From Candidatus Saccharimonadota bacterium (GTDB lineage: Bacteria; Patescibacteriota; Saccharimonadia; Saccharimonadales; Saccharimonadaceae): a stretch of DNA of 32,000 bases. Position 1 is the stretch's first letter. Every line of letters starts with the position of its first letter. The stretch spans positions 810,001 to 842,000 of the forward strand of contig CP060232.1 of the NCBI GenBank assembly GCA_023898645.1, read 5' to 3'. The translations under genes were made by a program, and so were the position numbers. The notes beneath the pieces are model-generated. The model did no database searches and was not told the origin of the DNA. It was given only the letters and a program-made list of their open reading frames with translations. Below, one piece after another: positions 11,202-27,271 of this stretch.

Positions 11202-11225
11202 AATTATTCTAAACGAGGTTTATCG

Positions 11226-11897
11226 ATGGCAAATTCATTTTCGTTTGAAATTTGTAAGGATGTCAGTGCCACAGACATCTCTATTGACCCTGTAATGGCC
11301 AGTCTCGAAAGTATGCGCGAACATACTGGCGAGATAGATATCATAGATACTGATCACTTGATTGAGTTTCCAGACTCAGACAGCGAAAGAATACGCCCAC
11401 GCCAGCTTGGCATCAAGCAAATGGCAGACTTTGCGTTAGTACTTACCAACAAGCCAATCGGCGAAGAGGACGAAAGAACCAAGGGTTTCACGTATTCATT
11501 CCCAGACGGTAAGCCACTCGGACTTCGCGCGTCAATAATATCTACCCACGACAATTATAATCTTGAAGTCGTGACAGACCACGAGGTAGGGCATTTGTTC
11601 AACATGGTTAACCACGGTGAAAAACACGACGGCAACGGCCACTGCACCGACGAAGAATGTATGATGCACAAGAGCCTTACAAGAGCGCTTGAAAGAACCG
11701 TATACGTGAGCAACGAGAACGGCGAAGAGCATCGCACTATAGGCGAGACTCGACCGACGTACCTCAAAAAGCGCCTGTGTCAGACATGCGAGTCGCTCTT
11801 TGCATACAATACCCAAGTCCTTTTGGACGCAAAGCGAGGCAAAGAGGTCGCGAATAGTCTGGTTTTTGCCGCAATGGCACGCGCCGGTCACCTGTAA
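11226..11897 (+). CDS. Archaemetzincin-like (peptidase M54-like) zinc metallopeptidase, paralogue A
   Basis: 223 aa with the signature HEVGH-x15-HC-x4-CMM-x37-CQTC. The N-terminal layout parallels paralogues B and C. Confidence 0.7.
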   Translation: MANSFSFEICKDVSATDISIDPVMASLESMREHTGEIDIIDTDHLIEFPDSDSERIRPRQLGIKQMADFALVLTNKPIGEEDERTKGFTYSFPDGKPLGLRASIISTHDNYNLEVVTDHEVGHLFNMVNHGEKHDGNGHCTDEECMMHKSLTRALERTVYVSNENGEEHRTIGETRPTYLKKRLCQTCESLFAYNTQVLLDAKRGKEVANSLVFAAMARAGHL

Positions 11898-11900
11898 CAC

Positions 11901-11909
11901 TGCTATAAT
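11901..11909 (+). promoter_or_regulatory. Extended -10 TGcTATAAT, 6 nt before ATG 11916
   Basis: acTGcTATAATgcacacATG read directly. Confidence 0.55.
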
Positions 11910-11915
11910 GCACAC

Positions 11916-12173
11916 ATGACAGCAAACCGAATGCGTAAAAATTTTATGCAAAGTCGCTTAGCAATAGCGCTGCTAATATTGGTAGCAATCTTGGCACTGT
12001 TGATTGGGTTTAGCATACTCCGACAAACCATCGTAAAAAACGACATAAACAGCTTTGAAGACTGCGCAGCTTCTGGCCGACCAGTTCTGGAAACATTTCC
12101 CGAGCAATGTATAGGGCCCGACGGCACACGCTACACAAAACAGTACGACACAACACCAAGAAGCAGTATATAA
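11916..12173 (+). CDS. Small membrane-anchored/secreted protein with a Cys pair, unknown function
   Basis: 85 aa. An N-terminal basic stretch is followed by the TM helix LAIALLILVAILALLIGFSIL, then FEDCAASGRPVLETFPEQC. Confidence 0.6.
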   Translation: MTANRMRKNFMQSRLAIALLILVAILALLIGFSILRQTIVKNDINSFEDCAASGRPVLETFPEQCIGPDGTRYTKQYDTTPRSSI

Positions 12174-12177
12174 AGTC

Positions 12178-12471
12178 TTACAAGTTTTCGGCGCTACGAT
12201 GAAAATCGCATTCGTTCCACAAAATCTTGCGAGCGCATTTTTGCACTTGGGCGATTTTTTGTGGCGAAAAGCCAAGTTCTTCTAGCGCATCTTCGTAGGT
12301 TTTGTCGCGCGCGTCTTCCACGATTTCTTCTGGCGTCATAGCTGATTTGGAGTATGAATACCGACCACCCACAGGATCTTCGATGTCGACCATGCGAGCA
12401 ACCGCAGCGCAAAGCAGGGGAGCGTCGACGTCATTTGAGGCAATAGGGCAGTTTTTGCAGGTTTCGGACAT
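12178..12471 (-). CDS. Hypothetical acidic Cys-containing protein
   Basis: 97-aa ORF with an ATG start (MSETCKNCP...). No family recognised. Confidence 0.5.
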   Translation of the reverse strand: MSETCKNCPIASNDVDAPLLCAAVARMVDIEDPVGGRYSYSKSAMTPEEIVEDARDKTYEDALEELGFSPQKIAQVQKCARKILWNECDFHRSAENL

Positions 12472-12609
12472 AGCTGTTCTCGATTTTACATGGAAATTCA
12501 GATTTGTCTAACGCGGGTAACTACCAAATATTAATAAAAAATGGTATAACTATACAACCGGTCAAATACCGGTGATATTTAAAATCCCACCCCAGAAAGA
12601 GATGATGCG

Positions 12610-13356
12610 ATGCGAATCATGCGGTTGCTTATGGCAGCTACGCTATCGTTTGGCGCTGCACTGATGGGCGCCACTGGTGCTCATGCTGATACATTGCCGA
12701 TCAATTGCAATGCTCACGTTCTAGACGCGACAACCTCGGGAGGTGTCGACACGGCTTTTATCCAGAAAAAGATCGACAGCCTCCGTGCAGTTTCACCGAC
12801 AGCCGATATTTATATCCAGGCGTACCAAAACCTCCCAGGTGGAGGCGCAGGGCAGTTTTGGCAGGCGGGTCTACAACAATGCTCGAATTGGAGATCTGCG
12901 TCGGGCAACCGTGCAGCCGACAATGTACTCGTAGCAGCATATGGCGTTGATTCAGGCGGACTTGCATTGTACTACGGCAAAGATTTCGCCTTGGCGATGT
13001 CTACCTACGAAAAAGAAATCCGCTCCACCGTGTTGATTGAGTTGGCAAATTTGAACGGCCAGCCAGGCAATCTTGACTACGTGACAAGTGGTTTGGCGCA
13101 AGTACTGATGAATGCGGAATTCTATATCAGAAATTCGCAGTACTATTCGGAAGTTGACGGCATCTACTATCCACCGGTAACTTCTGTCCCCGCAGTTGAG
13201 GAATTCCGCTTCGAACCGACTGCGTTCATCAAAGCTAGTGGCCTCGGGCTGCTTTTGATTGTTGGATTTGGACTACTCGTCGTGGTTCTTTCTCCTGCAG
13301 CGAAGCATCTGTCGCGGTTTGTACCGCCCGAACTCAAAATAGGCAGGCCTATGTAA
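12610..13356 (+). CDS. Secreted protein with C-terminal membrane anchor, possibly TPM-like domain
   Basis: 248 aa. Signal peptide MRIMRLLMAATLSFGAALMGATGAHA and C-terminal TM GLGLLLIVGFGLLVVVL are present. The central region only loosely resembles a TPM domain, so the function call is weak. Confidence 0.65.
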   Translation: MRIMRLLMAATLSFGAALMGATGAHADTLPINCNAHVLDATTSGGVDTAFIQKKIDSLRAVSPTADIYIQAYQNLPGGGAGQFWQAGLQQCSNWRSASGNRAADNVLVAAYGVDSGGLALYYGKDFALAMSTYEKEIRSTVLIELANLNGQPGNLDYVTSGLAQVLMNAEFYIRNSQYYSEVDGIYYPPVTSVPAVEEFRFEPTAFIKASGLGLLLIVGFGLLVVVLSPAAKHLSRFVPPELKIGRPM

Positions 13357-13382
13357 GAGCTGGGTCTAATGGGAAATAACTA

Positions 13383-13416
13383 GCCGGAGCTGCGCATCAG
13401 CGTAGCTCCGGCATTT
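13383..13416 (+). terminator. Intrinsic terminator-like hairpin
   Basis: A 13-bp stem (gccggagctgcgc / gcgtagctccggc, one G-U pair) with loop atca is followed by attt. Confidence 0.65.
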
Positions 13417-13504
13417 ACCCCTGTCTTTATATGAAGGTAGAGGTGAATCAAATGTCAGCACGATATCGTTAATCTACGGTGCAATAAAAGGTATTGTCGC
13501 AACT

Positions 13505-13729
13505 ATGAAAATCACAGTCACAGTAAAACCAGGCAGCAAAAAAGGACCGCTAGTTCAGCCAGATCTACTGGGTGGATATTTAGTATACGTGCGCGAGCCA
13601 GCGATTGAAGGCAAAGCAAATCGTGCTGTAGCAGAAATGCTAGCAAAATTTTTTGATATACCGAAAACTAAGGTCATATTGGTGCGTGGTGCAACCAGTA
13701 AGATAAAGGTATTTGAAATCCCAGAATAG
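13505..13729 (+). CDS. DUF167 (YggU-like) family protein
   Basis: 74 aa. The pattern KITVTVKPGSKK...EPAIEGKANRAVAEMLAKFF...VILVRGATSKIKVFEI matches YggU/UPF0235. Confidence 0.8.
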   Translation: MKITVTVKPGSKKGPLVQPDLLGGYLVYVREPAIEGKANRAVAEMLAKFFDIPKTKVILVRGATSKIKVFEIPE

Positions 13730-13730
13730 A

Positions 13731-13955
13731 CTATTCGTTCCAGTCGTCTGGTAGAGTGTCGGGGATTTTAGTATGCCCAACTTCGTAATCTACATAACTG
13801 TCGCGAGAATTTGCAGTAGCAATGCGGCGCAAATCCGCCTCGCCGAAACTGGCTTGTTCAAATCCGTCGCCCATGATGCTAAGCACAGTTCGTGCAGCCT
13901 TTTTTATGCGCGCTGATATGCTCTCACGATTGTCGTTGTATGATTCATAATTCAT
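13731..13955 (-). CDS. Hypothetical small acidic protein
   Basis: 74 aa counted from Met 9 of ORF 13731-13979. TATAAT (minus strand, 13962-13967) lies 6 nt upstream of this ATG. Confidence 0.5.
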   Translation of the reverse strand: MNYESYNDNRESISARIKKAARTVLSIMGDGFEQASFGEADLRRIATANSRDSYVDYEVGHTKIPDTLPDDWNE

Positions 13956-14011
13956 AGATTGATTATACAACAAATGCATGTTTTTAGCAATTTATAAAGA
14001 GGTGAGTGACT

Positions 14012-14800
14012 TTAAGTAATCACTTTTTTGATGGCATCGTACTGCTCGCGGACAACCTTTGCTACGTTTGGCGTAGCAGCGACAAATTCGAGGGTTTTGT
14101 AGTCGTAGTCCCTACCTTCAAACGATACGATTTCGCCACCGGCTTCTTGAACCAACAACACCCCCGGTATGTCGTCGTGTAGCATTGATCCACTACGCAG
14201 TTTGGTGACACCCTGTATGTTGCCCTGAGCCAAACGAGTAAACTCGTATCCCGAAGCACCGATAGGCGCATACATACCGAGCCCCGAATAACTCAGCACA
14301 GGATAAACATCCTTGTATGCCACTGCACCCGCAAATACGATCGAATCGTCTAACACAGTATTATTTATATGTATACTTTCACCGTTGCGATAAGCGCCCA
14401 GCCCGCGGATGGCCGTATAAAGCTCGTCGGTTGCGAAATGATATATGACGCTCGCTACCGTGACACCGTCTACCACCAAGCCCGCCATGTTGCTACAGTC
14501 GGGCAGTCCGTGCATAAAACTTCGCGTACCGTCGATAGGGTCAACGAACCACGTCGCGTCTATAGTGCCTTCGACGTCGTCGGTCTCTTCGCCATGAAAA
14601 CCAAAGTCAGGGTAGGCGTCTGCTAGTTTTGTTTTGAGCGCCTGCTCGATCTTGACGTCGAGTTTGGTAACCGGAGAACCGTCTTGTTTAGATGAGTGCT
14701 TGATCTTGCCGTACGATTCCATAAGTTCATCTCGAAAGCTCTTAAACACGTCGATGACGAGCTGTTGAGACTCACGGATTACTTCTGGCGATATAATCAT
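14012..14800 (-). CDS. Inositol monophosphatase family protein (IMPase/SuhB-like)
   Basis: 262 aa with HGEE, WFVDPIDGTRSF, and a C-terminal DD..G region characteristic of the family. Confidence 0.9.
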   Translation of the reverse strand: MIISPEVIRESQQLVIDVFKSFRDELMESYGKIKHSSKQDGSPVTKLDVKIEQALKTKLADAYPDFGFHGEETDDVEGTIDATWFVDPIDGTRSFMHGLPDCSNMAGLVVDGVTVASVIYHFATDELYTAIRGLGAYRNGESIHINNTVLDDSIVFAGAVAYKDVYPVLSYSGLGMYAPIGASGYEFTRLAQGNIQGVTKLRSGSMLHDDIPGVLLVQEAGGEIVSFEGRDYDYKTLEFVAATPNVAKVVREQYDAIKKVIT

Positions 14801-14806
14801 GGCTCT

Positions 14807-14815
14807 ACTATAGCA
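14807..14815 (-). promoter_or_regulatory. Extended -10 TGcTATAGT, 6 nt before the IMPase ATG (minus strand)
   Basis: The minus strand reads ctcTGcTATAGTagagccATG. Confidence 0.5.
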
Positions 14816-14849
14816 GAGCGGTAATCAAGTAAGGTTTACGGTGTAAAAA

Positions 14850-14877
14850 TTGACTGCATACTTATAAGTGCTATCAT
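14850..14877 (+). promoter_or_regulatory. Promoter TTGACT-16 nt-TATCAT, 8 nt before ATG 14886
   Basis: TTGACT at 14850-14855 and TATCAT at 14872-14877; no SD. Confidence 0.55.
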
Positions 14878-14885
14878 TCACTTAC

Positions 14886-15449
14886 ATGCACTATAACCGC
14901 AATCTCAGCATAGAGATATTCCGGGACAGTGAAACGCCCGATGTCCAAGTTGACCTTGCCGTGACGGCCCTGGAAGAAATACGACAAATCACAAAACATA
15001 TAGAAATCGTTGAACGTGGAAATGTGCTGCAACTGAGCGAGCCAGGTGTCGACGCTGTGTACACAAAAGATGTGCCGCTACACAAAATTCAAACTGATTT
15101 TGGCATTATACTTTCAAGCCGTCCGCTTGTGTTGCCGACTATGCTAGGGCAACCGCCAAACACAGGAAACATAACGGTAGGCAATGCGTGGGTAGGGCTA
15201 GACAAACCATTTGCTGTCATAGACGCTGAGCGTACGTACTCACTCAAAAACTCGACCAAACACGAAGTAGGGCATTTCATAGGAGTGCCGCGAAAAGGCA
15301 AATACTTTGACGGTGACTGTCACTGCAATCGCCCGAACTGCGTGATGCACTCCATGACCAAAATCGAAATCGAACAAGATGATTATTGCCACAACTGTAC
15401 CGCGCAGCTTGCCAAAAATGCGTTTAATTTAATGAGACTCAAAAAGTAA
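14886..15449 (+). CDS. Archaemetzincin-like (M54-like) zinc metallopeptidase, paralogue B
   Basis: 187 aa counted from ATG 14886. The ORF track begins at GTG 14868, which lies inside the predicted promoter. Signature HEVGH-x15-HC-x4-CVM-x13-CHNC. Confidence 0.7.
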   Translation: MHYNRNLSIEIFRDSETPDVQVDLAVTALEEIRQITKHIEIVERGNVLQLSEPGVDAVYTKDVPLHKIQTDFGIILSSRPLVLPTMLGQPPNTGNITVGNAWVGLDKPFAVIDAERTYSLKNSTKHEVGHFIGVPRKGKYFDGDCHCNRPNCVMHSMTKIEIEQDDYCHNCTAQLAKNAFNLMRLKK

Positions 15450-15509
15450 AAACCCGCACCGATAGTTTCGATGCGGGTGTGTTCGGACTCATCCGACTGA
15501 AGTTGTTGG

Positions 15510-15809
15510 TTAAAAATCCTCGTCTGGATTGTCTCCGGGTTTTTTACCCCAGCGCCAGCGCGGAGCAGGGCCTTTGGCACTGGTAATCAGCATAACCGCT
15601 ACAATGTCGGCGACAACTATGCCGATAAACAGTACCAGCTGACTAGCCGTGGGCTGTTCGGGCTTGGGCGGTAGAACGGTAATCCCCGCCGTGATAACCA
15701 CTGCAAACAGTGCAGCAATAATTAGCCAACCCTGCAGGGTGACCGGAGTCCAGCCCCAGCCGTAGCGTTTGCGTTTGAACCAATACTTTTTCGATTGTTT
15801 TTGTATCAT
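15510..15809 (-). CDS. Small 2-TM membrane protein with acidic C-terminus (paralogue of 5695-5958)
   Basis: 99 aa counted from Met 6; an alternative start is at 15824. TATACT at 15816-15821 (minus strand) lies 6 nt upstream of ATG 15809. Confidence 0.6.
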   Translation of the reverse strand: MIQKQSKKYWFKRKRYGWGWTPVTLQGWLIIAALFAVVITAGITVLPPKPEQPTASQLVLFIGIVVADIVAVMLITSAKGPAPRWRWGKKPGDNPDEDF

Positions 15810-15870
15810 AAACTCAGTATACATCTATTCGAGCTTGTAAAAAATATATTCCACTGCCATACTCAAACAT

Positions 15871-16389
15871 ATGAATAAAAGGAGTGGGCACGGCTTCACA
15901 ATCGTTGAACTTTTAATAGTTATTTTCATTATCGGTATTTTGGCGGCAATTGTCATCGCACTGTACAACGGTATCACGCAAAGAGCATACGATAGTCGTT
16001 CTCAATCAGAAATGTCCGCACTCACAAAAGCCGTACAAATATTTCAAGCAGTAAACGGTCGTTACCCCAACGATGTCAGCAGGGGAATCCCGGCCGAAAT
16101 CACACCCTACATAGACGGATCTTCGACTAATTGGCCAAACGCACCGTGGCCAGGAAGTATATACGATTACGACACCTTCACGGGATCTGACGGCAATGAA
16201 GTAGTACAAATGAGTATTCGATTTTGTCCAATGGGCGGGCCACTTAGCGCATGTAAATTCCCTAATGAACCTTGGGCAAGCGGGTTCAATATCGACAGTA
16301 GCGCTTATTGGTGCATTACAGGAAAATGTCGTGCCCATCCATCGCAACCAGACAACTATCCAGGTTACTGTCTAAACTGCGAAAGTTAA
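15871..16389 (+). CDS. Type IV pilin / pseudopilin-like protein (prepilin N-terminal cleavage/methylation domain)
   Basis: 172 aa. MNKRSGHG-FTIVELLIVIFIIGILAAI shows the G/F cleavage site with Glu at +5. The C-terminal domain is Cys-rich. Confidence 0.85.
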   Translation: MNKRSGHGFTIVELLIVIFIIGILAAIVIALYNGITQRAYDSRSQSEMSALTKAVQIFQAVNGRYPNDVSRGIPAEITPYIDGSSTNWPNAPWPGSIYDYDTFTGSDGNEVVQMSIRFCPMGGPLSACKFPNEPWASGFNIDSSAYWCITGKCRAHPSQPDNYPGYCLNCES

Positions 16390-16475
16390 GTTCATTTTGA
16401 TTTAAATACTATGCAAATAGACTCAAATTAACCATGCAGTAACACCATGTGGCCTGCAAAATCAATATAAAAATT

Positions 16476-16489
16476 GGGGCGAGTGCCCC
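16476..16489. terminator. Bidirectional terminator hairpin between the pilin gene and the micro-ORF
   Basis: ggggc-gagt-gcccc, flanked by aaaaatt upstream and gattttta downstream. Confidence 0.65.
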
Positions 16490-16494
16490 GATTT

Positions 16495-16560
16495 TTATAC
16501 CGCTACTTTAGGTTGTTTCGGTTTTTTGACTTCTTTGCGTTTGTTTTGACCTTTTGACAT
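16495..16560 (-). CDS. Candidate 21-aa lysine-rich micro-protein MSKGQNKRKEVKKPKQPKVAV
   Basis: The ATG is preceded by AAGGGG (5-nt spacing) and by TGcTATACT. The stop is followed immediately by the terminator hairpin. The ORF is too short for a homology judgement. Confidence 0.35.
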   Translation of the reverse strand: MSKGQNKRKEVKKPKQPKVAV

Positions 16561-16585
16561 ATTTGCCCCTTTGATTACTAATCAT

Positions 16586-16594
16586 AGTATAGCA
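16586..16594 (-). promoter_or_regulatory. Extended -10 TGcTATACT (minus strand) upstream of the micro-ORF
   Basis: The minus strand reads gcaTGcTATACTatgattagtaatcaaaggggcaaatATG. Confidence 0.45.
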
Positions 16595-16612
16595 TGCGCA
16601 TAGGAGTAAAAG

Positions 16613-16648
16613 AGCCCCCGAGAAAACTCTTTCGAGCTCTCGAGGGCT
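16613..16648 (-). terminator. Terminator-like hairpin after the XRE gene
   Basis: A 10-bp stem with one mismatch (agcccccgag / ctcgagggct). On the minus strand it is followed by ctttta. Confidence 0.5.
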
Positions 16649-16652
16649 TGAT

Positions 16653-17006
16653 CTAGAAACAGAAGTCGCATTGGCCCGTAGGGGGCAGAGTGACGAAGCA
16701 GGTTGGGCAATACGGTGAGCGCTGCTCATCGGAATGCAGAGATCGAACGCTCAAGTCTTTGCTACCCAGTGGCCTACCAAGGTGCGATAAACCATTCGGC
16801 CAGAAAATCTCGTTGATTTCAGTACCGAGAGCCCTGCAAAGTGCGTGTGCCACGTTATAAGACACACCCTGTCCATACCCGCCATGTTCAATGCGTGAAA
16901 TGGTGGATTTCGAGACGTTCGAAAGCTTTGCGAGCTTAGTGAGTGTCATGCCGTGGTCCAGACGAACTTGCCTAAGACTGTGCAACCTAACGTATACAGA
17001 GGTCAC
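16653..17006 (-). CDS. XRE-family helix-turn-helix regulator with C-terminal zinc-ribbon-like tail
   Basis: 117 aa with a GTG start and AGGAG 8 nt upstream. The HTH is LRQVRLDHGMTLTKLAKLSNVSKSTISRIEHG. The C-terminus has CPTC-x10-CDFC. Confidence 0.8.
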   Translation of the reverse strand: MTSVYVRLHSLRQVRLDHGMTLTKLAKLSNVSKSTISRIEHGGYGQGVSYNVAHALCRALGTEINEIFWPNGLSHLGRPLGSKDLSVRSLHSDEQRSPYCPTCFVTLPPTGQCDFCF

Positions 17007-17134
17007 GCAACCAACTCCTAATTATCTAGAACAACACAATTTGTGTATAGGCATGTTTTATCATGAATTTAAATATATTACAAGTAAACACGTGTTGTCT
17101 GCCACGCAATCGACAATATTGAACGTACGGTCAG

Positions 17135-17743
17135 CTAGATGAGTTTTGATTTTTTGGCGGCCGCAATGCCTACAAATACGCCCAAGCCAACTTTTGCCAC
17201 GTCAAGCGCCTGAAAGCCAATTTTTTTGAGTAGTTCTTTGCGTTTGACGCTTGGCTTTTGTTCGTAATTTTCTGCACTAATGGCAGAAAGTTGGTTCATG
17301 TCGGCTTGAAAACACATCTGGTACAACTCGAGAACTTGCTCGGCCACACTCTCGTCATCGTTGTCGTCGCTCTCAGATTCTAGTAAATAGCTGCGTAGCG
17401 AATCAAAAGCATCGTTTGCCACAGTGTATGGCTCATCCTTGCTTCCACTGATTTCATTGAGAAATGCAACGCGTTGGATTTCGAGCCCTCTGGCGTATTC
17501 AATCATTTCATTTATATTTTCAACGCTACCGGACTCGTCGTCGATTTGCTCAAGTGCAATCCGTACCGCACTTAAATGCGCAGATGCGGCCTTTTCAAGT
17601 GGGTCGCCGTTTTTTAAAAGAGGTTTTTCTGCAAAGGCAGTGCATAAGTCCTTGATGTCCGAGAGTTGATCGAGTATACGCATGTCGATGAATGCCGTGC
17701 CTTCCAGCTTGAAATCGTCTTCACCAGTAAACTCGTGATTCAT
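17135..17743 (-). CDS. Acidic, predicted helical protein with C-terminal tail-anchor TM, unknown function
   Basis: 202 aa. An acidic stretch ESESDDNDDES is present, and the C-terminal hydrophobic segment is VAKVGLGVFVGIAAA followed by KKSKLI. Confidence 0.65.
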   Translation of the reverse strand: MNHEFTGEDDFKLEGTAFIDMRILDQLSDIKDLCTAFAEKPLLKNGDPLEKAASAHLSAVRIALEQIDDESGSVENINEMIEYARGLEIQRVAFLNEISGSKDEPYTVANDAFDSLRSYLLESESDDNDDESVAEQVLELYQMCFQADMNQLSAISAENYEQKPSVKRKELLKKIGFQALDVAKVGLGVFVGIAAAKKSKLI

Positions 17744-17749
17744 GACGAG

Positions 17750-17778
17750 ACTATATCATAAGTAACAAAAAACGTCAA
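17750..17778 (-). promoter_or_regulatory. Near-consensus promoter TTGACG-17 nt-TATAGT, 6 nt before ATG 17743 (minus strand)
   Basis: The minus strand reads TTGACGttttttgttacttatgaTATAGTctcgtcATG. Confidence 0.6.
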
Positions 17779-17950
17779 AGATAAATTCTAATACAGAGAT
17801 TTTCTTGGTAATTTGCTTAATTTACAAAAATATGGTAAATTAAGTATAGAAAAGTCATTACGACGAAATCACTAAAAAGAAGTCTCTACCCCAAACTCAG
17901 TAGTTTACTCCCAAACAAGCGATCAGCCTAACGCGCAAGGAGAAACAACT

Positions 17951-18166
17951 ATGAATATTTACAATCACAAAAAAGAAATTTCACTTAATCAATGGCAGAA
18001 AAATCTCGAAATAGCTAACGACATTGAAACAGAAAGAGTTCGAGCAGAAATTGCAGGAATCAAACAAGCATATACGGACAAGTACGGCCCGCCAGACGTA
18101 GTGGAGGGGCTATCTCATGACGGCGTAGTACGGCGAGACTCAAACACGGCGAAGCCGAACTCCTAA
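17951..18166 (+). CDS. Hypothetical small protein
   Basis: 71-aa ORF with SD AAGGAG 8 nt upstream of the ATG. Confidence 0.55.
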   Translation: MNIYNHKKEISLNQWQKNLEIANDIETERVRAEIAGIKQAYTDKYGPPDVVEGLSHDGVVRRDSNTAKPNS

Positions 18167-18169
18167 AAT

Positions 18170-18610
18170 TTGCCAAATATTGCGCAAGGTAAAACCAAGT
18201 TTGATACAATGTACGGTATTATGTCGTCTGTTGAAGAATATGCTTATACGTTTCGGATGATCATACCGGAAAAATCACTGGTAGACTTAGAAAGTATAAG
18301 CGAGAAAATGATGAAAAATTCAGCAGAAGGCTCTACGCCCATGGTTGTATCGACTATTGACGATTACTTAACCATCAGCATCAACGAAGATACTGAATTT
18401 CCCGACGAGCGACTGCCATATGCTGTGATGCTGGCAAAAACCGCCTTGCGCGAATACGGTATAGAACGGCCGATGTTTATAAATGCCTACGCTACACGCA
18501 TGAACGGAGAAGATTTAGCTGACATTCACGAGCAAATAGTAATTGAAACCGAAGAAGACTACATAATCAATCTGACAGACGAACTAATGCAACACGAACT
18601 CAATAAATAG
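18170..18610 (+). CDS. Hypothetical acidic protein
   Basis: 146-aa ORF if it starts at TTG 18170; an alternative ATG is at 18209. No family recognised. Confidence 0.5.
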   Translation: MPNIAQGKTKFDTMYGIMSSVEEYAYTFRMIIPEKSLVDLESISEKMMKNSAEGSTPMVVSTIDDYLTISINEDTEFPDERLPYAVMLAKTALREYGIERPMFINAYATRMNGEDLADIHEQIVIETEEDYIINLTDELMQHELNK

Positions 18611-18661
18611 CGTCGCCTGAATTATTTATTTGCCCAACACCTTAGACCATCTGCGCCTAAG

Positions 18662-20317: not shown

Positions 20318-20323
20318 CAACGT

Positions 20324-21085
20324 CTAGTACGCACAATATGCTAGGTAGACAACCGCAGCCAACCCGACAACGATAATGCCTACTCGTAGCCAATGGCCCG
20401 AGATGCGCTGCGCAAATCGAGACCCGCTGTAGCCGCCAACAATACTACCGATCGCCATAATTACGCCTATACGCCAATCTAAGAGGTTCGACCCGTATAG
20501 ACAAATCATAGATGTAACGGCAAGAAACACGGCCGATATATTTTTCATGGCATTCATCATGTGAGTGTCGTGCACGTTCGTAAAACTCAAAAAAGCAAGC
20601 ATCAAAAACCCAAAGCCAGCACCAAAAAAACCACCATAATAACTTACCGGCAACAGAGCGAGACCGAGTAAAAATAGTGGCCAGTTAGACTTTGCACGAC
20701 CTTTCACCAGTTTATGCAGATGGAAATGCATAAGTGGCTGAAAAGCGAACAGTCCAATACCAAACAACACCAATACCGGCACTAATTTGGCGAAATATCC
20801 CGGCTCAGTACCGCGCAAGGTAATAGAGCCTGCAGCCGCACCGATAACCACTGGCACTAGTAGCCACGCATAGCGCAGCGGCACTCGTTTTAGATAATTC
20901 CAGTAACCAATGGCTGACGCTAGCTGACCAGGTGCAGTAATAATAACACCGGTCGCGCTAGCTGTAATTGGCGGTATACCAATTGCAATCATGACAGGCA
21001 GACCAACAAGCATGCCGCCACCAGCGATAGCATTCATAGCGCCCACGACGACGGCAGTTACGAGCAATATAACATCATTTTCCAT
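20324..21085 (-). CDS. TSUP (TauE/SafE, DUF81) family membrane transporter
   Basis: 253 aa counted from Met 21. It is polytopic, with GAMNAIAGGGMLVGLPVMIAIG and repeated G-rich TM helices. Confidence 0.85.
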   Translation of the reverse strand: MENDVILLVTAVVVGAMNAIAGGGMLVGLPVMIAIGIPPITASATGVIITAPGQLASAIGYWNYLKRVPLRYAWLLVPVVIGAAAGSITLRGTEPGYFAKLVPVLVLFGIGLFAFQPLMHFHLHKLVKGRAKSNWPLFLLGLALLPVSYYGGFFGAGFGFLMLAFLSFTNVHDTHMMNAMKNISAVFLAVTSMICLYGSNLLDWRIGVIMAIGSIVGGYSGSRFAQRISGHWLRVGIIVVGLAAVVYLAYCAY

Positions 21086-21231
21086 GTTTGTTTTGTGTTG
21101 TTCCTGTACAAAGTATACCAGACAACACGTCGCAGAATTGTTCAAAAATATTGTCCTATCCTGCTATGAACATCAGCGGGTAGTTATTTAGTGGATTCCG
21201 GCAAAAATACTTGTTGTACCTAAGAAGCTCA

Positions 21232-21240
21232 TGCTATATT
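21232..21240 (+). promoter_or_regulatory. Extended -10 TGcTATATT upstream of the surface-protein gene
   Basis: caTGcTATATT, then SD AGGGGGA (21252-21258), then TTG 21265. Confidence 0.45.
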
Positions 21241-21264
21241 AATAGCAAACAAGGGGGAACGAAG

Positions 21265-22891
21265 TTGAACACTAAACTTATGCGTTTGCGTATGAGAGTG
21301 ACGGTATTGATTTCCGTTGCCGTACTTTTAATTTCACAGTCAGCACCGGCATTTGTACACGCAGTACCTGGCGAGACTATCTACACCGGTGGCAACACTG
21401 GGCTTGCCGGCGACGATGATTACGCAGGTCCAATCAACCTTGGATTTAATTTTGACTTTTACGGCAGCACCTACTCGAGCACCTATGCCAACATCAACGG
21501 TACGTTGAATTTTAGCAGCGGCTCCAGTACATATTCCAATAGTGCTTCCGTACGGAAGTATGAGTAACTCGATCATGGCCTTTTGGGATGATTTAATCAC
21601 AAGGGATTTCAGCGACCAATCTATCTTGTACAAAACAATCGGAACGCCTGGCAGCCAGGAATTCATCATGCAATGGACCAATATGTACTTTTATAGCAAC
21701 CCCAGCCTCCCCATGGGTACATTTCAGGCTATTTTGTACGAAGGGACAAACAAAGTCCAACTACAATATCGAGATTTACTCGGTGGTGACGCGTCCATGG
21801 GAAACTCGGCAACAGTTGGCATAAACAAAGACGGCACGACAGCAAACCAAGTTTCATATAATTCCGCCAGCCTTACCGAAGGGCAAGCCATCAGCTTTAC
21901 GCCAGACGGCGGGGGAGGCTATACGGTCAACACAAGCGCAACATACGACCCTGTCTACTTAGCGGATGCCAGCGCCCCAGACGCACCAATACTCAGTGCA
22001 CCCACAAACAGTACTACCGATGTCAGCACGACACCGACATTTTCGTGGGGAGCTGCAAATCTAGCCGACACATACCAGCTGGTTGTCGCAAGTGATGCAA
22101 ATTATTCAAATATCGTCATCAATGAGAGCGGGCTAACAAACACAACATATACGCCTTCAACGGCACTAGACACAAATACGATGTACTACTGGAAGGTTAT
22201 CGCAGTCAATAGCAGCGGTACAGCAATATCTGACGGATGGAAGTTTACTACTGCGCCGCCAGACGACAATGACGGCGTCTTACAATCCGTCGAAGCGGCA
22301 GCTCCAAACGGCGGTGATGCCAATGGAGACAGCACGCCCGATTCACAACAAACAAACGTGACAAGTTTAGTAGACCCAGTAACAAATAGATATGCCGTTC
22401 TCGATACCGTAGGCTGCCCGACAAATACGAACGTATCCGCGGCCGCCCATACGAACGACGACTCTTACACGTACCCAGCAGGCATGCTCAGTTTCGTTCT
22501 AGATTGCGCCAGCCCTGGCGATACCGCCACGATAACGCAGTATTACTACGGCGTCGACCCAAGCGGACTCGTGCTACGTAAGTACAATTCAACCACGCAC
22601 ACATACCAAAACATCACCAATGCAACAATCAGCAGCGTGCTGATAGGCGGCCAAGCCGCAACCAAAGTCGTATACACCGTTACGGATGGCTCGGCACTCG
22701 ACGACGATGGCACGGTCGACGGCCATATCGTTGACCCAGTCGGCCTAGCCGAAGCCGTTGCGCCTGGCGCGCCCAATACTGGCGTCGGCTCACGTGAAGA
22801 CTATCTGGCAGGCTTGCTCGCCCTGACTTCAATCAGTCTATTCATAACTGCTGGAGCACTCACTCTGAGCCGCAAAAAATCACAATTTTAG
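21265..22891 (+). pseudogene. Frameshifted (or recoded) secreted surface protein: signal peptide, NIDO-like domain, FN3-like repeat, C-terminal APNTG sorting signal
   Basis: ORF 21265-21567 carries the signal peptide and the first half of the domain (INLGFNFDFYGSTYSSTYANINGTLNF). ORF 21542-22891, in the +1 frame, continues the same domain (IMAFWDDL...FIMQWTNMYF...TFQAILYEGTNKVQLQY). The two overlap at 21542-21567. Confidence 0.6.
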
Positions 22892-22904
22892 ACAATGCGC
22901 TCGT

Positions 22905-22947
22905 ACTTAAAATACCCCCGAACGTAAAAGCCGAGGGTATTTTAAGT
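22905..22947. terminator. Bidirectional terminator between convergent genes
   Basis: A 13-bp perfect stem (acttaaaataccc / gggtattttaagt) with a 17-nt loop. Confidence 0.7.
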
Positions 22948-22956
22948 AGCAACTAT

Positions 22957-23343
22957 TTACGATTCAATCGCCGTCAGCTCGATATCAAACACCAAATCGC
23001 TGTTTGGTGGGATGTTTGGCGATGGGCTAGCAGGGCCATAGGCCATAGCTGCCGGTATAACTAAACGGCGTACGCCACCGACTTTCATGCCTGGCACGCC
23101 TTGTGTCCAGCCAGGAATAACGCCGCTAAGTGGAAACGTCACAGGATTTCCAAAGTCGTGGCTGCTTTGAAAAATCGTACCGTCTGCTACGAGAGCACCG
23201 GTGTAATGAGCGGTGATTGTCGCGCCTTGTGGCACTTCGTCACCCGTGCCTACAGTCACGTCAGTGATCTGTAATTCAGTCACTTCAGTCATAGGGTTAA
23301 AGTTTGCTAATTTCGTACCTTCGAGTTTTTGAGTATTATCCAT
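22957..23343 (-). CDS. FKBP-type peptidyl-prolyl cis-trans isomerase
   Basis: 128 aa counted from Met 42. AHYTGALVADGTIFQSS...VIPGWTQGVPGMKVGGVRRLVIP...LVFDIEL is the FKBP_C pattern. TATACT at 23350-23355 (minus strand) lies 6 nt before the ATG. Confidence 0.85.
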   Translation of the reverse strand: MDNTQKLEGTKLANFNPMTEVTELQITDVTVGTGDEVPQGATITAHYTGALVADGTIFQSSHDFGNPVTFPLSGVIPGWTQGVPGMKVGGVRRLVIPAAMAYGPASPSPNIPPNSDLVFDIELTAIES

Positions 23344-23493
23344 GTACCTAGTATAGCTGCAAAAGATCAAAAAAAGTGTTATACTAAAAACAGCAAGTAT
23401 TCTAGACTTATCGCTATATATTGGTTTAGCCACCGACCTGTACGACAAAAGCAACGCATATTGCATCTAAAAGCTTTAAACGAAAGGCAACAC

Positions 23494-23784
23494 ATGGCAA
23501 CAAAACTATTTATAGGAAAACTCTCTTACGATACCGTCGAACAAAGTCTCAATGATTTATTCTCTCAGTACGGACAAGTAAACAGCGCGGACATCATCAT
23601 TGACCGACAGACAAACAAGTCCAAAGGATTTGGATTCGTAGAAATGGCCGATGACGAAGCAGCTAAAAAAGCAATCGCCGAACTCGATGGCAAAGAGTTT
23701 GAAGGACAAAGGTTAGTCGTAAACGTCGCCAAGCCACGCGAGGAACAACCTCGTCACCAAGGCGGCTTCCGACGAAGTTGGTAA
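23494..23784 (+). CDS. RRM-type RNA-binding protein
   Basis: 96 aa. RNP-2 is LFIGKL, RNP-1 is KGFGFVEM, and the tail is Arg/Gly-rich. Confidence 0.9.
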   Translation: MATKLFIGKLSYDTVEQSLNDLFSQYGQVNSADIIIDRQTNKSKGFGFVEMADDEAAKKAIAELDGKEFEGQRLVVNVAKPREEQPRHQGGFRRSW

Positions 23785-23785
23785 T

Positions 23786-24022
23786 ATGACGAATTCTCTC
23801 ACGAGGCAACAATTCTTGAAATCAGAACAAGGGGTGTCGCTTCGGGAGGAACTGATGGTGATGGTAAAAAGTGCCGAGTATAATACTCGGCCTATTTATT
23901 CTTTGGTTTCTGTCGATGAATTCCAATTCGTTGAAAAGCACATGGACTACATGAGTAAACACCCACGCATGAACCATCGGCAGTACGTTCTAAACCTCAA
24001 ACTGATGACAAAAATCCGATAG
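23786..24022 (+). CDS. Hypothetical small protein
   Basis: 78-aa ORF starting 1 nt after the RRM gene stop. No family recognised. Confidence 0.5.
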   Translation: MTNSLTRQQFLKSEQGVSLREELMVMVKSAEYNTRPIYSLVSVDEFQFVEKHMDYMSKHPRMNHRQYVLNLKLMTKIR

Positions 24023-24040
24023 CTAACGAAGGTCCGATAT

Positions 24041-24718
24041 CTACGATACGCGGACGGCGTAGACGACTAGGCGGTGATCGTAAGTACCTTGTGTCGCTAC
24101 ATAAGTTCCGGCGCAAGTCATAAGATTCAATCCTTGAGAACCGTCGCCATAGACACTCAACGCTTTGCCCATGTCAATATCGACTAGGGGTACTGTTTCT
24201 GTGTGTACTACACGGTATTTGAACGTTTGACCACCATAGTTTACGCTGATAATTTGACCTTCACGAACACTGTGAAGCTTAGCAAAGACGCCGTCAACAT
24301 GACCGTCCAAAAATGCCGCGCCATCCACACCGGGTCGAGCGCTACCAATCCAATGACCAACCTGTAGGCTGGAAGGTACGTCAATATTGTTGGTTGCCGT
24401 TACGCCCACCTCGATGATAGACGACTGAAACCCGATAGATGGAATCGAGAGGCTGTTGCCTACGACAGCCGCAGCACGAGGCTTAGCAGGCTGAGCAGCA
24501 GACACGTTCTTAGTCGACGCCGTGAACACTTGTGGTTTAGATATGCTTGAACTTGGAGAATTTTGGCTTGAGTTTTGAGCAGCTTGCGGCAGCGCGAGCT
24601 CTTGCGTGTGAGGGTTTTCTGATGAGTAGGCAGGTGTTGCCGCCCAAACAGTGACACAGAGATTAACACCGACCATAAGAGCGGCGAAAGCTGACAATAA
24701 ACTAGTACGTCGTTGCAT
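24041..24718 (-). CDS. Sortase family transpeptidase (class F-like)
   Basis: 225 aa counted from Met 7, with GGGAG 6 nt upstream. There is an N-terminal TM helix. LSIPSIGF, the catalytic His in FLDGHVD, Cys in LMTCAG and Arg in HRLVVYA are present. Confidence 0.85.
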   Translation of the reverse strand: MQRRTSLLSAFAALMVGVNLCVTVWAATPAYSSENPHTQELALPQAAQNSSQNSPSSSISKPQVFTASTKNVSAAQPAKPRAAAVVGNSLSIPSIGFQSSIIEVGVTATNNIDVPSSLQVGHWIGSARPGVDGAAFLDGHVDGVFAKLHSVREGQIISVNYGGQTFKYRVVHTETVPLVDIDMGKALSVYGDGSQGLNLMTCAGTYVATQGTYDHRLVVYAVRVS

Positions 24719-24890
24719 ATAATTCTCCCAATGCATGTCTGCAAATAAAAAACCCCGGACAGTCGCCCTCCGGGATCTATATGAACTTAATATAATTATA
24801 TCAGAAAACTACAAAAAATGCAAGCGTGTACGAGGGGTCCCGTCTGGTTACGTCTCGTCCGCTAGACAATTGGTATACAATGGGTGCAAT

Positions 24891-25535
24891 ATGACATCGG
24901 AAAACGTTCCCGCCATAAAGCCTAACAAGCAGTTTCCGATAGGTGATGTCGTCTATGATAGCCACCGAAACAAAAAAGTATCTGAGTGGTTCGAAAGAGT
25001 AGAGGACATGGACCGCGACGGGTATTCGGCGCACGTCAACTTCCACCATGCGCCAACATCGCAAGACGGTGAAAAAGCATGTTTGACGCACGACGCTGCA
25101 GTGCGACTTTGTCAAAGTTGGGACAATTCACGAGCAGATGGTGTACCGGCCTCACATGTAGGGTATAGACTAGTTATGACCTTCAATCAGCAGGCTCGAC
25201 TACTACCAAAGTGTGACGTAGACCTGACCAAGCAATTGACTCAAATGTGCGAGCAGCAAAAGCACTTGGCGCGTGAATTCGCGCGCTTTGCATGGGAAAG
25301 TATCGCTGACTATCCGCACGTATACGCAGTTTATGAGCGTTTACTCGAAATTGGCCGGACGCGGTTCGCCCTAGACGACGAAGAAGATCGCGATTATTTT
25401 AAAGCGGGCATGGCGCTGCCATTCATGTTTGCCTGGACAAGCAGGCTCGAAGGCTACACACCGAAATTTTCAGGCATGATAGAAACGACTGGCGAACCAG
25501 ACAGTGACAGTTTCGGTCGATGCTTTACGACCTGA
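24891..25535 (+). CDS. Unknown-family protein, paralogue 1 (family shared with 27923-28642)
   Basis: 214 aa counted from Met 53 of ORF 24735-25535; the longer form would overlap the sortase start region. TACAAT at 24876-24881 lies 9 nt upstream. Confidence 0.6.
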   Translation: MTSENVPAIKPNKQFPIGDVVYDSHRNKKVSEWFERVEDMDRDGYSAHVNFHHAPTSQDGEKACLTHDAAVRLCQSWDNSRADGVPASHVGYRLVMTFNQQARLLPKCDVDLTKQLTQMCEQQKHLAREFARFAWESIADYPHVYAVYERLLEIGRTRFALDDEEDRDYFKAGMALPFMFAWTSRLEGYTPKFSGMIETTGEPDSDSFGRCFTT

Positions 25536-25539
25536 CCAA

Positions 25540-26100
25540 CTAGTTCGAGCCTGATTCGTACGCAAGGCTATATGACGGTGAAATTTCACCGGTTACATTG
25601 TCATACGGCGCACCAAACAGCGCGACGCAACGACGCAACAATTCGGCATGAATGCGCTCCATGTCTGGCTCGCCAATCACTTCCGTCAGCAAATGTTCAG
25701 TCTCTGTAGGTAGATGCTTTGCAATCAAGCTATCGCTCAAGGCAAATGATCGTATGCGCCAGCTTAGCGCGGCGTCTACGGTTGGCAATGGGTTTCCGAT
25801 GCAAGCTTCGCAGGCCGGAACGCCAAGACACGCTACAGTCTTGAGATTTACGTCAGGCTTCGTCCACGTGTCGGGCTTTCCCCATATCATATACGCGAAG
25901 TCTCTTGCGCGTCCTCGATCCATAGTCGGGTCATACGAGTGAACTATCACTGCATCGTCTTCGTTCTGTTTCCTGATACCGATTACTCGTTCGTGCAATA
26001 CGTCGCTAAACACGACCGGATGTAAATCATCCGGCTCAAACGGCTCACCGTTTTCGCATTTCCATAAATCTCGTACTGGAATACCCCAAATTTTTCGCAT
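25540..26100 (-). CDS. Hypothetical protein
   Basis: 186-aa ORF with SD CAGGAG 5 nt upstream (minus strand). No family recognised. Confidence 0.6.
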   Translation of the reverse strand: MRKIWGIPVRDLWKCENGEPFEPDDLHPVVFSDVLHERVIGIRKQNEDDAVIVHSYDPTMDRGRARDFAYMIWGKPDTWTKPDVNLKTVACLGVPACEACIGNPLPTVDAALSWRIRSFALSDSLIAKHLPTETEHLLTEVIGEPDMERIHAELLRRCVALFGAPYDNVTGEISPSYSLAYESGSN

Positions 26101-26203
26101 ATATACTCCTGTTTCGTAGGGACAAGGGTACTACACATTTATCGACCGTACAAATTTAATGTGTAGTTTGTGTCATAATTATATATAGACACAAGGAGGG
26201 TAT

Positions 26204-26602
26204 ATGAGAGGATTCGTAGCCAATATCGAAGAAATATCGAAAGCGAACACAAATTTTCGCCACGTTTTGTACACCGGACACAACGCACAGCTAGTCGTGA
26301 TGAGCATCGCGCCTGGTAGCGAAATCGGCATGGAAATTCACCCGGATAATGATCAGTTTTTGCGATTCGAAAGTGGAACAGGCAAGGTAATCATCGACGG
26401 CAATGAACATGACGTCAGCGATGGTTTTGCCGTGGTCGTACCAGCTGGCTCGGAGCATGACGTCGTAAACGTATCGCAAACCGAGCCGCTCCAGCTCTAC
26501 ACACTTTATTCACCGCCACATCACCAAGACGGGTTAGTACGTGCCACCAAAAAGGACGCCGAAGCTCATGAAATCGAATTCGACGGCGTAACGAGCGAAT
26601 AA
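26204..26602 (+). CDS. Cupin domain protein
   Basis: 132 aa. GSEIGMEIHPDNDQFLRFESGTG...VVPAGSEHDVVN shows the two cupin motifs. SD AAGGAGGG is present, with TGtCATAAT at 26171-26179. Confidence 0.85.
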   Translation: MRGFVANIEEISKANTNFRHVLYTGHNAQLVVMSIAPGSEIGMEIHPDNDQFLRFESGTGKVIIDGNEHDVSDGFAVVVPAGSEHDVVNVSQTEPLQLYTLYSPPHHQDGLVRATKKDAEAHEIEFDGVTSE

Positions 26603-26640
26603 ATAATCTACTCCGATTCTGAGGATGAAAACTTTATTTA

Positions 26641-26669
26641 TTGACAAGTATATTTTTTGATTTTATAAT
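26641..26669 (+). promoter_or_regulatory. Consensus promoter TTGACA-17 nt-TATAAT, 8 nt before ATG 26678
   Basis: TTGACAagtatattttttgatttTATAATcaccggtaATG read directly; no SD. Confidence 0.7.
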
Positions 26670-26677
26670 CACCGGTA

Positions 26678-27271
26678 ATGAAATTACCGCGAATAAGTGT
26701 TGAAGTATTTCGGGATCGCGGTTCGCCAGACGCGGCTGTTGAGCTTGCCGTACGCGCCCTGCAAGAAATGAATCTGATTTTTGATGATGGCTTAGGAGTT
26801 ATTGATAGCGGCCGGCTAGCCCCACTTGGTTATCCGGGCGTTTCACATGTCAATGTAGATGACGTGCCCACTATAGAGACAAGGGCAGATTACGGCGTAG
26901 TTATGACGCACAATCCACTCATATCGTCCCCTGGGCTACAGACAGAGTACGATGAGCGAAATGAAATAATAGTAGGTATAGCAATAACGAACGGTAAAGA
27001 AAAACCGTACGGAATAATCAATTCCGAATATCCAGAAGAAGTGTCAGAACGCGCTGTACAGCACGAGTTTGGTCACCTGATGGACGTCAAACGAAACGGT
27101 GAAAATTATGATGGCGAGTGGCACTGCAGCCTAGAACAGTGCACCATGTATCGTACAGCGACTCGCGAAAAAAGCGATTTTTGCAATGAGTGCGCCGACC
27201 AAGCTGCTAAATATTTGTTCATGCGACGCAGACAAAAAGCCGGACTACTACGCAGGCTTTTCGTCTTGTAA
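26678..27271 (+). CDS. Archaemetzincin-like (M54-like) zinc metallopeptidase, paralogue C
   Basis: 197 aa with the signature HEFGH-x15-HC-x4-CTM-x11-CNEC. The N-terminus ISVEVFRDRGSPDAAVELAVRALQE parallels paralogue B (LSIEIFRDSETPDVQVDLAVTALEE). Confidence 0.75.
   Translation: MKLPRISVEVFRDRGSPDAAVELAVRALQEMNLIFDDGLGVIDSGRLAPLGYPGVSHVNVDDVPTIETRADYGVVMTHNPLISSPGLQTEYDERNEIIVGIAITNGKEKPYGIINSEYPEEVSERAVQHEFGHLMDVKRNGENYDGEWHCSLEQCTMYRTATREKSDFCNECADQAAKYLFMRRRQKAGLLRRLFVL

Follow-up and report, generated by a model that had tools for sequence, protein, structure and literature searches.

The window examined here is a 32,000-nucleotide stretch (contig CP060232.1, positions 810,001 to 842,000 of the forward strand; assembly GCA_023898645.1) of a Candidatus Saccharimonadota genome of 1.13 Mb, present as a 1,134,346-bp contig of a metagenome-assembled genome (MAG). 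It encodes three small paralogous proteins, all annotated by NCBI as 'hypothetical protein', that carry the metal-binding motif of archaemetzincins (AMZs; MEROPS family M54) with a lengthened loop inside it. The three open reading frames, here named ORF1, ORF2 and ORF3, and their motif elements are as follows, in window coordinates:

11226-11897 (+): ORF1, 223 amino acids (USN96260.1, H6797_04260), a long-form family member; motif residues HEVGH 119-123, H139-C140, C145, M147 and C185-x2-C188.
11595-11639 (+): loop of ORF1, residues 124-138 (LFNMVNHGEKHDGNG), from the active-site helix to the HC dyad, 10 residues longer than in canonical M54.
14886-15449 (+): ORF2, 187 amino acids (P0001 in the family alignment, H6797_04295); motif residues HEVGH 126-130, H146-C147, C152, M154 and C168-x2-C171.
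15276-15320 (+): loop of ORF2, residues 131-145 (FIGVPRKGKYFDGDC), in which HMMER aligns RKGKYFDGDC as an insertion versus M54.
26678-27271 (+): ORF3, 197 amino acids (P0002, H6797_04385); motif residues HEFGH 129-133, H149-C150, C155, M157 and C169-x2-C172.
27077-27121 (+): loop of ORF3, residues 134-148 (LMDVKRNGENYDGEW).

The earliest possible start of ORF2 is a GTG at 14868; NCBI and other gene callers use the ATG at 14886. By regular expression, the motifs read HEVGH-x15-HC-x4-CMM-x37-CQTC in ORF1, HEVGH-x15-HC-x4-CVM-x13-CHNC in ORF2 and HEFGH-x15-HC-x4-CTM-x11-CNEC in ORF3, confirming on the + strand the shared HExxH-x15-HC-x4-CxM-CxxC arrangement that a preliminary description of this DNA had reported. 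A degenerate DNA pattern for HExxH-x15-HC-x4-CxM matches the window exactly three times and none of 100 dinucleotide-preserving shuffles, which rules out chance occurrence of the motif. The archaemetzincin signature given in that description is right as published, HEXXHXXGXXHCX4CXMX17CXXC (PMC3427221; PMC4681839), and its HC dyad, C-x4-C-x-M element and CxxC pair are, as claimed, kept in all three ORFs.

As in metzincins generally, each ORF has HExxH with the catalytic Glu on the active-site helix. The metzincin Gly three residues past the second His (HExxHxxG) is present in ORF2 and is Asn in ORF1 and Asp in ORF3. The position six residues past that His, which is the canonical site of the third ligand, is occupied by N, R and R in the three ORFs, with the single invariant downstream His sitting 16 residues past it. 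Every loop contains a G-x-x-[H/F/Y]-D-G element (GEKHDG, GKYFDG and GENYDG in ORF1, ORF2 and ORF3, respectively). The N-termini (MANSFSFEICKD, MHYNRNLSIEIFRD and MKLPRISVEVFRD) lead directly into β-strand 1, which is entered at residue 5-7; neither the sequences nor the models reveal a signal peptide, hydrophobic leader, prodomain or additional domain at the N-termini of the three ORFs.

Pairwise BLASTP gives 33% identity for ORF2 and ORF3 (E 9e-35), 25% for ORF1 and ORF2 (E 4e-18) and 26% for ORF1 and ORF3 (E 6e-14), and the alignments span nearly the full length, including the quoted N-terminal stretch, so that the proposed paralogy extends to the N-terminal halves. The suggestion of a lineage-specific expansion fared less well, at least as a recent event: orthologues in other genomes are much closer (55-93% identity for ORF1, 37-75% for ORF2 and 43-45% for ORF3) than the paralogues are to each other (25-33%), which rules out recent tandem expansion. 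Because each has closer orthologues elsewhere, the three copies are old subfamilies maintained side by side. A search of the 32 kb window with the family hidden Markov model (HMM) found no member beyond ORF1-3, and a search of 5.8 billion proteins, which was not exhaustive, returned no fourth protein from the 1.13 Mb contig. Local duplication of the family also occurs elsewhere: in another Saccharibacteria genome (locus L019) two members lie in tandem, 3 nt apart, at 5052-5792 (-) and 5796-6620 (-). The ORF1 orthologue at locus L032 is solitary within 20 kb. The source organism, with a protein identical to ORF2, turns up in at least four independent Sequence Read Archive runs.

The wider family was assembled in two steps, with a word-indexed search of the 5.8 billion proteins giving 14 relatives, none of which has a Pfam domain, and HMMER then comparing a profile of these 14 exhaustively with 1.84 billion cluster representatives. 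The family so defined comprises at least 266 clusters (266 at E <= 1e-3, 172 at E <= 1e-10), with proteins of 170-250 residues and end-to-end matches. The alignment used below holds the 146 sequences, out of 161 examined, kept for their full HExxH...HC...CxM...CxxC motif. Mean column identity across these 146 is 18%, and no column is invariant outside the metal-binding motif, to which HExxH contributes H, E and H, the dyad both its residues, CxM its Cys and Met, and CxxC its two Cys. The HC-x4-CxM spacing is four in 146/146, and the CxM Met, which corresponds to the metzincin Met-turn, does not vary among them; elsewhere in the family, a few proteins carry Leu or Gln at this position. All four Cys are likewise invariant, with the CxM-to-CxxC spacer being 37, 13 and 11 residues long in ORF1, ORF2 and ORF3, versus 16 in M54. 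The Gly position of HExxHxxG alternates between G, N and D across the family, and β-strand 1 bears an N-terminal hallmark, V-E-I-F-R-D, that is not in M54.

All named or titled family members are from Saccharibacteria/Patescibacteria, and the closest named homologues of ORF1-3 are from Candidatus Saccharibacteria and Saccharimonadales. The NCBI label of the source MAG is Candidatus Nomurabacteria; given that the named close homologues and the family loci in GTDB belong to the Saccharibacteria, Saccharimonadales or Patescibacteria group, this label may be wrong. A scan of one GTDB genome per species with the x15 DNA pattern, which detects x15 members only and covered a collection from which the genome of the window is absent, gave 31 loci, with ~17 chance matches estimated from the information content of the pattern. 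Nine of the 31 encode full-length family members, eight in Saccharibacteria/Patescibacteria bins and one in an unclassified bacterium.

For comparison with M54 we used 120 PF07998-annotated proteins, among them AmzA of Methanopyrus and Archaeoglobus and bacterial proteins from Aquificota and Thermotogae. The HExxH-to-HC distance is x5 in 120/120 of these and x15 in the three ORFs, and the segment described as about 10 residues longer is exactly 10 longer than in canonical M54 by both hhalign and HMMER alignments. The insertion is, however, not the special shared trait of three genes for which it had been taken. Loop length varies between 5 and 22 residues in the family; 15 is the commonest (58 of the 146 sequences), and the other spacings are 17 (15 sequences), 13 and 16 (13 each), 14 (12), 12 (9), 5 (8) and, all together, 6-11 and 18-22 (18). 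The G-x-x-[YHF]-D-G element, reported as conserved, is indeed in all three loops, whereas across the Saccharibacteria family it is typical of the x15 subgroup only and is missing in, for example, P0014.

Within the ORF2 subfamily, proteins 37-42% identical to ORF2 include P0052, HEFGHEVGL----------GHC (x5), and P0032, HETAHLLGIRN-----DKEGHC (x10), aligned with HEVGHFIGVPRKGKYFDGDCHC (x15) in ORF2 itself; the x5 relatives of ORF2 carry the canonical HEFGHEVGLGHC. Because x5, x10 and x15 forms coexist in this one subfamily, the loop has been gained or lost among fairly close relatives, and it is dispensable for the fold. Another x5 member, P0136, scores 24.7 bits with the Pfam M54 model, barely above the cut-off of 24.4. 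Leishmanolysin (M8) is a metzincin with a long insertion (~60 residues) between HExxHxxG and the third His ligand of the zinc; this large eukaryotic enzyme, secreted or GPI-anchored, lacks a Cys4 site and is otherwise unrelated to ORF1-3. By analogy, leishmanolysin shows that the metzincin fold can tolerate an insertion before the third His.

The x15 spacing also occurs outside the family, in M54 modules of other bacteria. Six loci (L004, L016, L022, L027, L029 and L030) encode modules that score 42-57 bits, above the Pfam cut-off, and that align with 2x7m, 3lmc and 3zvs with a clean 10-residue gap in the same place. These Planctomycetota-type modules have an HExxH-x15-HC-x4-CxM spacing identical to that of ORF1-3, with the insertion reading HELGHLFGLGleiplsddrqHC versus archaeal HELGHTFGLG----------HC. 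They differ from ORF1-3 in having the M54 elements 'FxFGxA' and 'FS..ELD', the x16 spacer and a ..RLSD.. loop, and in lying mostly in very long stop-free frames. Small proteins with HExxH-x15-HC-x4-CxM...CxxC that belong by threshold neither to the Saccharibacteria family nor to M54 are found in Planctomycetota (L001, L018, L008 and L023) and in DPANN archaea (L012 and L015). The Planctomycetota proteins have long N-terminal extensions, that of L001 including a lipoprotein-like signal sequence, and at least some of them are probably exported.

The archaemetzincin-like character claimed for the three proteins is supported at the profile-profile and fold levels only. An HMM built from the 120 M54 proteins scores the window ORFs at 20.8, 9.2 and 3.3 bits. 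By hhalign, the 146-sequence family matches the M54 set with a probability of 99.0% (E 2.6e-18); the 100 aligned columns reach from strand 3 as far as the C-terminal helix, with one gap in the metal-binding signature, of 10 columns, falling exactly between 'GL' and 'HC'. The match to the sequences of three solved archaeal AMZs is similar (99.1%, E 1.1e-18), and that to four snake-venom M12B sequences is weaker (97.4%, E 1.3e-11). The M54 comparisons span 84-122 columns, from strand 3 to the C-terminus; the N-terminal half of ORF1-3, with V-E-I-F-R-D, has no sequence alignment to M54.

The archaemetzincins (MEROPS M54, PF07998, NF033823; structures 2x7m, 3zvs/4axq and 3lmc) are small single-domain metzincins of the cytoplasm, as ORF1-3 would also be, and they share with ORF1-3 HExxH, the His-Cys dyad, C-x4-C-x-M and CxxC, the residues that in archaemetzincins make up a His3 catalytic and a Cys4 structural site. 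Their CxM-to-CxxC spacer is 16 residues in 119/120 reference proteins by our own count (X17 in the published signature), and they come from archaea, Aquificota or eukaryotes, whereas the named family members come from Saccharibacteria/Patescibacteria. We therefore file the proteins as M54 homologues that would work like archaemetzincins and that lie outside M54 as now defined, because they depart from its defining features in scoring below the cut-off, in where the dyad lies and, for two copies, in the Gly. New are the family itself, the lability of its loop and the replacement of the canonical Gly in two of three copies. As a divergent, unannotated relative of M54, for which fold and metal-site architecture are known, the family extends an established enzyme class modestly and represents neither a new kind of system nor a new mechanism.

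The AlphaFold modelling proposed in the preliminary description gave metzincin catalytic-domain folds for both proteins modelled, ORF2 (mean predicted local confidence, pLDDT, 83; predicted template modelling score, pTM, 0.84) and ORF1 (pLDDT 82, pTM 0.83), both with AlphaFold2. The best Foldseek match of the ORF2 model in the PDB is the M. kandleri archaemetzincin 2x7m (E 9.5e-8, TM-score 0.63/0.65), followed by ADAMTS-5 and AfAmzA. The ORF1 model matches ADAMTS-5, TACE and 2x7m at E ~1e-4 to 3e-4, with 2x7m having the best TM-score (0.62) and root-mean-square deviation, and metzincin structures alone score at E <= 0.003. At E <= 0.001, all matches of both models are metzincins (AMZ, ADAMTS, TACE, matrix metalloproteinases, fragilysin and snapalysin). 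The active-site helix is predicted at residues 120-132 in ORF2 and 113-124 in ORF1, ending about two residues past HExxH. The ORF1 loop is modelled as coil with single β-bridges at residues 134, 140 and 148; the residues bridged in the loop region are the aromatic residue or His of [YHF]-D-G and the HC Cys. One further element is predicted in the long spacer of ORF1:

11682-11762 (+): β-hairpin of ORF1, residues 153-179, in the 37-residue CxM-CxxC spacer; predicted, with pLDDT ~88-91.

The reading that we favor, with a probability of about 0.65, is that the three proteins are cytoplasmic two-zinc metzincin peptidases in which the HC dyad supplies its His as third catalytic ligand, with the loop and spacer shaping the entry to the cleft and so setting the paralogues apart. 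The metal roles of the corresponding residues in archaemetzincins are given by crystal structures (PMC3427221, PMC4681839). By extension from these, the catalytic zinc would be held by three His, the two that HExxH places on the active-site helix and the invariant one of HC, with the HExxH Glu acting as general base and the invariant Met forming the Met-turn beneath the metal. A second, structural zinc would be bound, as in the solved archaemetzincins, by four Cys, namely that of HC, that of CxM and the CxxC pair. The variable loop (15 residues in ORF1-3, 5-22 in the family) would leave the helix and return to deliver the third His, probably being anchored in the x15 forms by the aromatic/His-Asp-Gly element. 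Lying beside the metal and the cleft, it would most likely set substrate access and specificity together with the CxM-CxxC spacer and, since both vary between subfamilies, the paralogues would have different peptide or protein substrates. A cytoplasmic location is likely because an N-terminal hydrophobic segment or prodomain is absent.

Several observations weigh against this reading. The preliminary description had named the lack of a significant M54 match as a refutation of its archaemetzincin claim, and formally this is the outcome, no ORF being above the curated threshold: with PF07998, ORF2 scores 17.7 bits (cut-off 24.4), over its C-terminal 50 residues only, and hmmscan gives no match for ORF1 or ORF3, while NF033823 (NCBIfam 'archmetzin') gives 21.1 and 13.6 bits against a cut-off of 145. 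The helix-ending Gly is exchanged for Asn in ORF1 and for Asp in ORF3, and ORF1-type loops carry an additional His-Asp (KHDG) as a possible alternative ligand. In plain profile-to-sequence HMMER comparisons, the snake-venom metalloproteinases 4q1l (E 5e-12) and 3gbo (E 1e-10) outrank 2x7m (E 4e-6), and weak Pfam matches among the 146 members are to Reprolysin in 36 versus M54 in 19. Five of the 161 family sequences examined (P0112, P0129, P0140, P0144 and P0154) are without HExxH and are probable pseudoenzymes; the first four retain the HC/C-x4-C/CxxC cysteines and P0154 does not. Even for the reference family the term peptidase is not secure, because archaeal AmzA is inactive in standard assays and has no established substrate (PMC3427221).

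The last two points would fit proteins that are non-catalytic, serving as zinc-stabilized scaffolds or regulators in the manner of CarG of Myxococcus xanthus. This AMZ homologue is documented from a bacterium and acts in regulation: it binds zinc, bears, like ORF1-3, a His/Cys-rich two-zinc motif, lacks protease activity and partners a transcription factor (PMC3427221); the five HExxH-less sequences imply that non-enzymatic members do arise in the present family also. CarG, however, has Gln for the catalytic Glu, whereas the Glu, the three His and the Met are kept in ORF1-3 and in 146/146 motif-bearing sequences, and ORF1-3 have neither a DNA-binding or partner domain nor a conserved neighboring gene; we thus regard such a role as unlikely, though deserving of some weight. 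The HMMER and Reprolysin rankings, for their part, raise the possibility of a reduced cytoplasmic adamalysin/reprolysin (M12B) lineage, with the [H/Y/F]-D-G of the loop a remnant of the M12B HExxHxxGxxHD, as does the likeness of ORF1 KHDGNGHCTDEECMM to leucurolysin RHDGNQCHCNAPSCIM and the slightly better Foldseek E-values of ADAMTS-5 and TACE than of 2x7m with the ORF1 model. M12B enzymes (leucurolysin 4q1l, ADAMTS-5 3ljt) do share with ORF1-3 the metzincin fold, the C-x4-C-x-M Met-turn context and an H-D-G-like element, ranking second as structural matches and best by plain HMMER score. Yet at the canonical position, where M12B has its third His followed by Asp, the three ORFs have N, R and R; the family does not conserve the loop His, for which ORF2 and ORF3 have Y or F; and the Reprolysin model (PF01421) matches none of the three ORFs, its best weak family match being at E 5.9e-7. 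The profile-profile comparison favors M54 by seven orders of magnitude and runs through CxxC, which M12B lacks, x5 family members read HExxHxxGxGHC, i.e. the AMZ signature, and the secretion, disulfides and prodomains of M12B enzymes are all lacking in ORF1-3. The resemblance to M12B is local (H-D-G...C-H-C-x4-C-I-M) and is explained by the published view that the AMZ Cys4 site lies where two disulfides are found in other metzincins (PMC3427221). We accordingly give an M12B origin little credence.

A further variant keeps active metzincins and takes the third ligand from the loop (the Asp of the near-invariant D-G, or the His of HDG in ORF1-type proteins), with the HC His being structural or in the second shell. 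Asp is usable as a metzincin third ligand, HEXXHXXGXX(H/D) (PMC3427221), and the Asp four residues before the HC His (D142 in ORF2) is shared by at least 90% of the 14 close homologues. Across the wider family, though, the equivalent of D142 varies, x5 members have the HC His but no loop, and that His is invariant in 146/146 sequences and aligns with the crystallographic third ligand of AMZs, which makes a loop-borne ligand highly improbable.

Outside the window, five of the loci with x15 M54 modules (35-51% GC) place them in exceptionally long open frames on GTDB contigs, with dozens to hundreds of stops in every other frame:

L016, 1-4857 (-): stop-free frame across the entire sequence examined (0 stops, as in the next three; 4.4-8 kb).
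L022, 2-7999 (-): stop-free frame.
L027, 3-4445 (-): stop-free frame.
L030, 2-7999 (+): stop-free frame.
L004, 1813-6324 (-): near stop-free frame, with a single stop.

The enzymes encoded one after another in these frames are unrelated. The L030 frame holds DUF362, PHP, M54 and a full-length phosphoglucose isomerase in series; that of L027 holds M54, transaldolase, transketolase and a HAD hydrolase; and that of L022 holds M54, HEAT repeats and a PRK/uridine-kinase domain. The junctions between modules repeatedly carry a peptide, [S]-[L/I]-D-N-G-G, whose codons vary synonymously. From their sequences, these frames look like giant polyproteins with an embedded archaemetzincin-type protease; their binning is doubtful because the bins fall in four different phyla. 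In IMG/VR and JGI metagenomes we found no further stop-free contexts of this kind, only ordinary stand-alone M54 genes with canonical x5, and literature searches on such polyproteins found nothing. Among IMG/VR viral contigs, 23 (L037-L059) encode M54-like proteins of 195-236 residues, with HExxH-x5-HC, a mostly 12-residue CxM-CxxC spacer and 47-87 bits with the M54 HMM built here; archaemetzincin-like genes thus occur in predicted phage genomes.

The x15-loop modules, set between metabolic enzymes and flanked by the conserved junction peptide as would be expected of a protease that processes polyproteins, are the sole hint of a processing role. They bear on a bolder proposal, namely that ORF1-3 represent a separate metzincin family, and not just a divergent M54 branch, with the hypervariable loop before the third zinc ligand as a specificity or gating flap, each paralogue being a protease devoted to processing its own cytoplasmic targets in an obligate epibiont; we consider this speculative and rather unlikely.

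Each of the three genes is preceded by a promoter-like site, these being consensus matches and no evidence of function:

11173-11201 (+): ORF1, TTGCTA-17-TATAAT with TG before the -10, 24 nt before the ATG.
14850-14877 (+): ORF2, TTGACT-16-TATCAT with TG before the -10, ending 8 nt before the ATG at 14886.
26641-26669 (+): ORF3, TTGACA-17-TATAAT (12/12), with the -10 ending 8 nt before the ATG at 26678.

In 10900-27500 there are 27 promoter-like matches, versus a shuffle expectation of 26 +/- 5; the three best on the + strand each lie directly upstream of one ORF, which agrees, at the level of consensus matching, with the claim that each gene has its own promoter and that two are apparently leaderless. 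The ORF1 mRNA would have a leader, since the promoter-like site and then a GAGG at 11215-11218, 7 nt before the ATG at 11226, precede the start. No Shine-Dalgarno sequence lies upstream of ORF2 or ORF3, and it is plausible that their mRNAs are leaderless.

Directly upstream of ORF1, 6486-11152 (+) holds a complete operon of PrkA (AAA_PrkA + PrkA), DUF444 (YeaH-like) and SpoVR. A functional link of ORF1 to it was considered and rejected, as the operon is not beside the ORF1 orthologue in L032. No conserved neighboring gene emerged across the 13 family loci compared. A convergent FAD-linked oxidase gene recurs at L019, L024, L025 and L028 and is absent from the window; its recurrence probably reflects synteny of related genomes. 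With PADLOC, neither the three ORFs nor their unannotated neighbors matched a defence system. ORF3 is flanked by a pair of paralogues, 24735-25535 (+) and 27839-28642 (+), encoding 266 and 267 residues (40% identity, E 4e-56) with no Pfam or PADLOC match, and lineage-specific gene duplicates seem abundant in this region. The left end of the window has a Schlafen group 3-like DNA/RNA helicase gene, 215-2203 (+) (E 8e-78), adjoining an IS200-like Y1 transposase gene, 2322-2912 (+), and the two may form a mobile or defence-related islet.

Archaemetzincins are a widespread group of peptidases, ranging from archaea to humans, with unknown natural substrates, and our literature searches on metzincins in Saccharibacteria found nothing. 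The metzincin clan is defined by HExxHxxGxx(H/D); in the present family the third ligand is displaced by 0-17 extra loop residues, and the 'strictly conserved' Gly is replaceable by Asn or Asp without any change in the full ligand set. As a consequence, signature- and HMM-based annotation misses the family, leaving every member a 'hypothetical protein'. The practical outcome is modest, i.e. a candidate new Pfam/MEROPS subfamily and corrected annotation. The x5, x10 and x15 series within one subfamily constitutes a natural experiment on the role of the loop, and the retention of three old paralogues in a very small Saccharibacteria genome (1.13 Mb) suggests that the proteins are useful to the organism.

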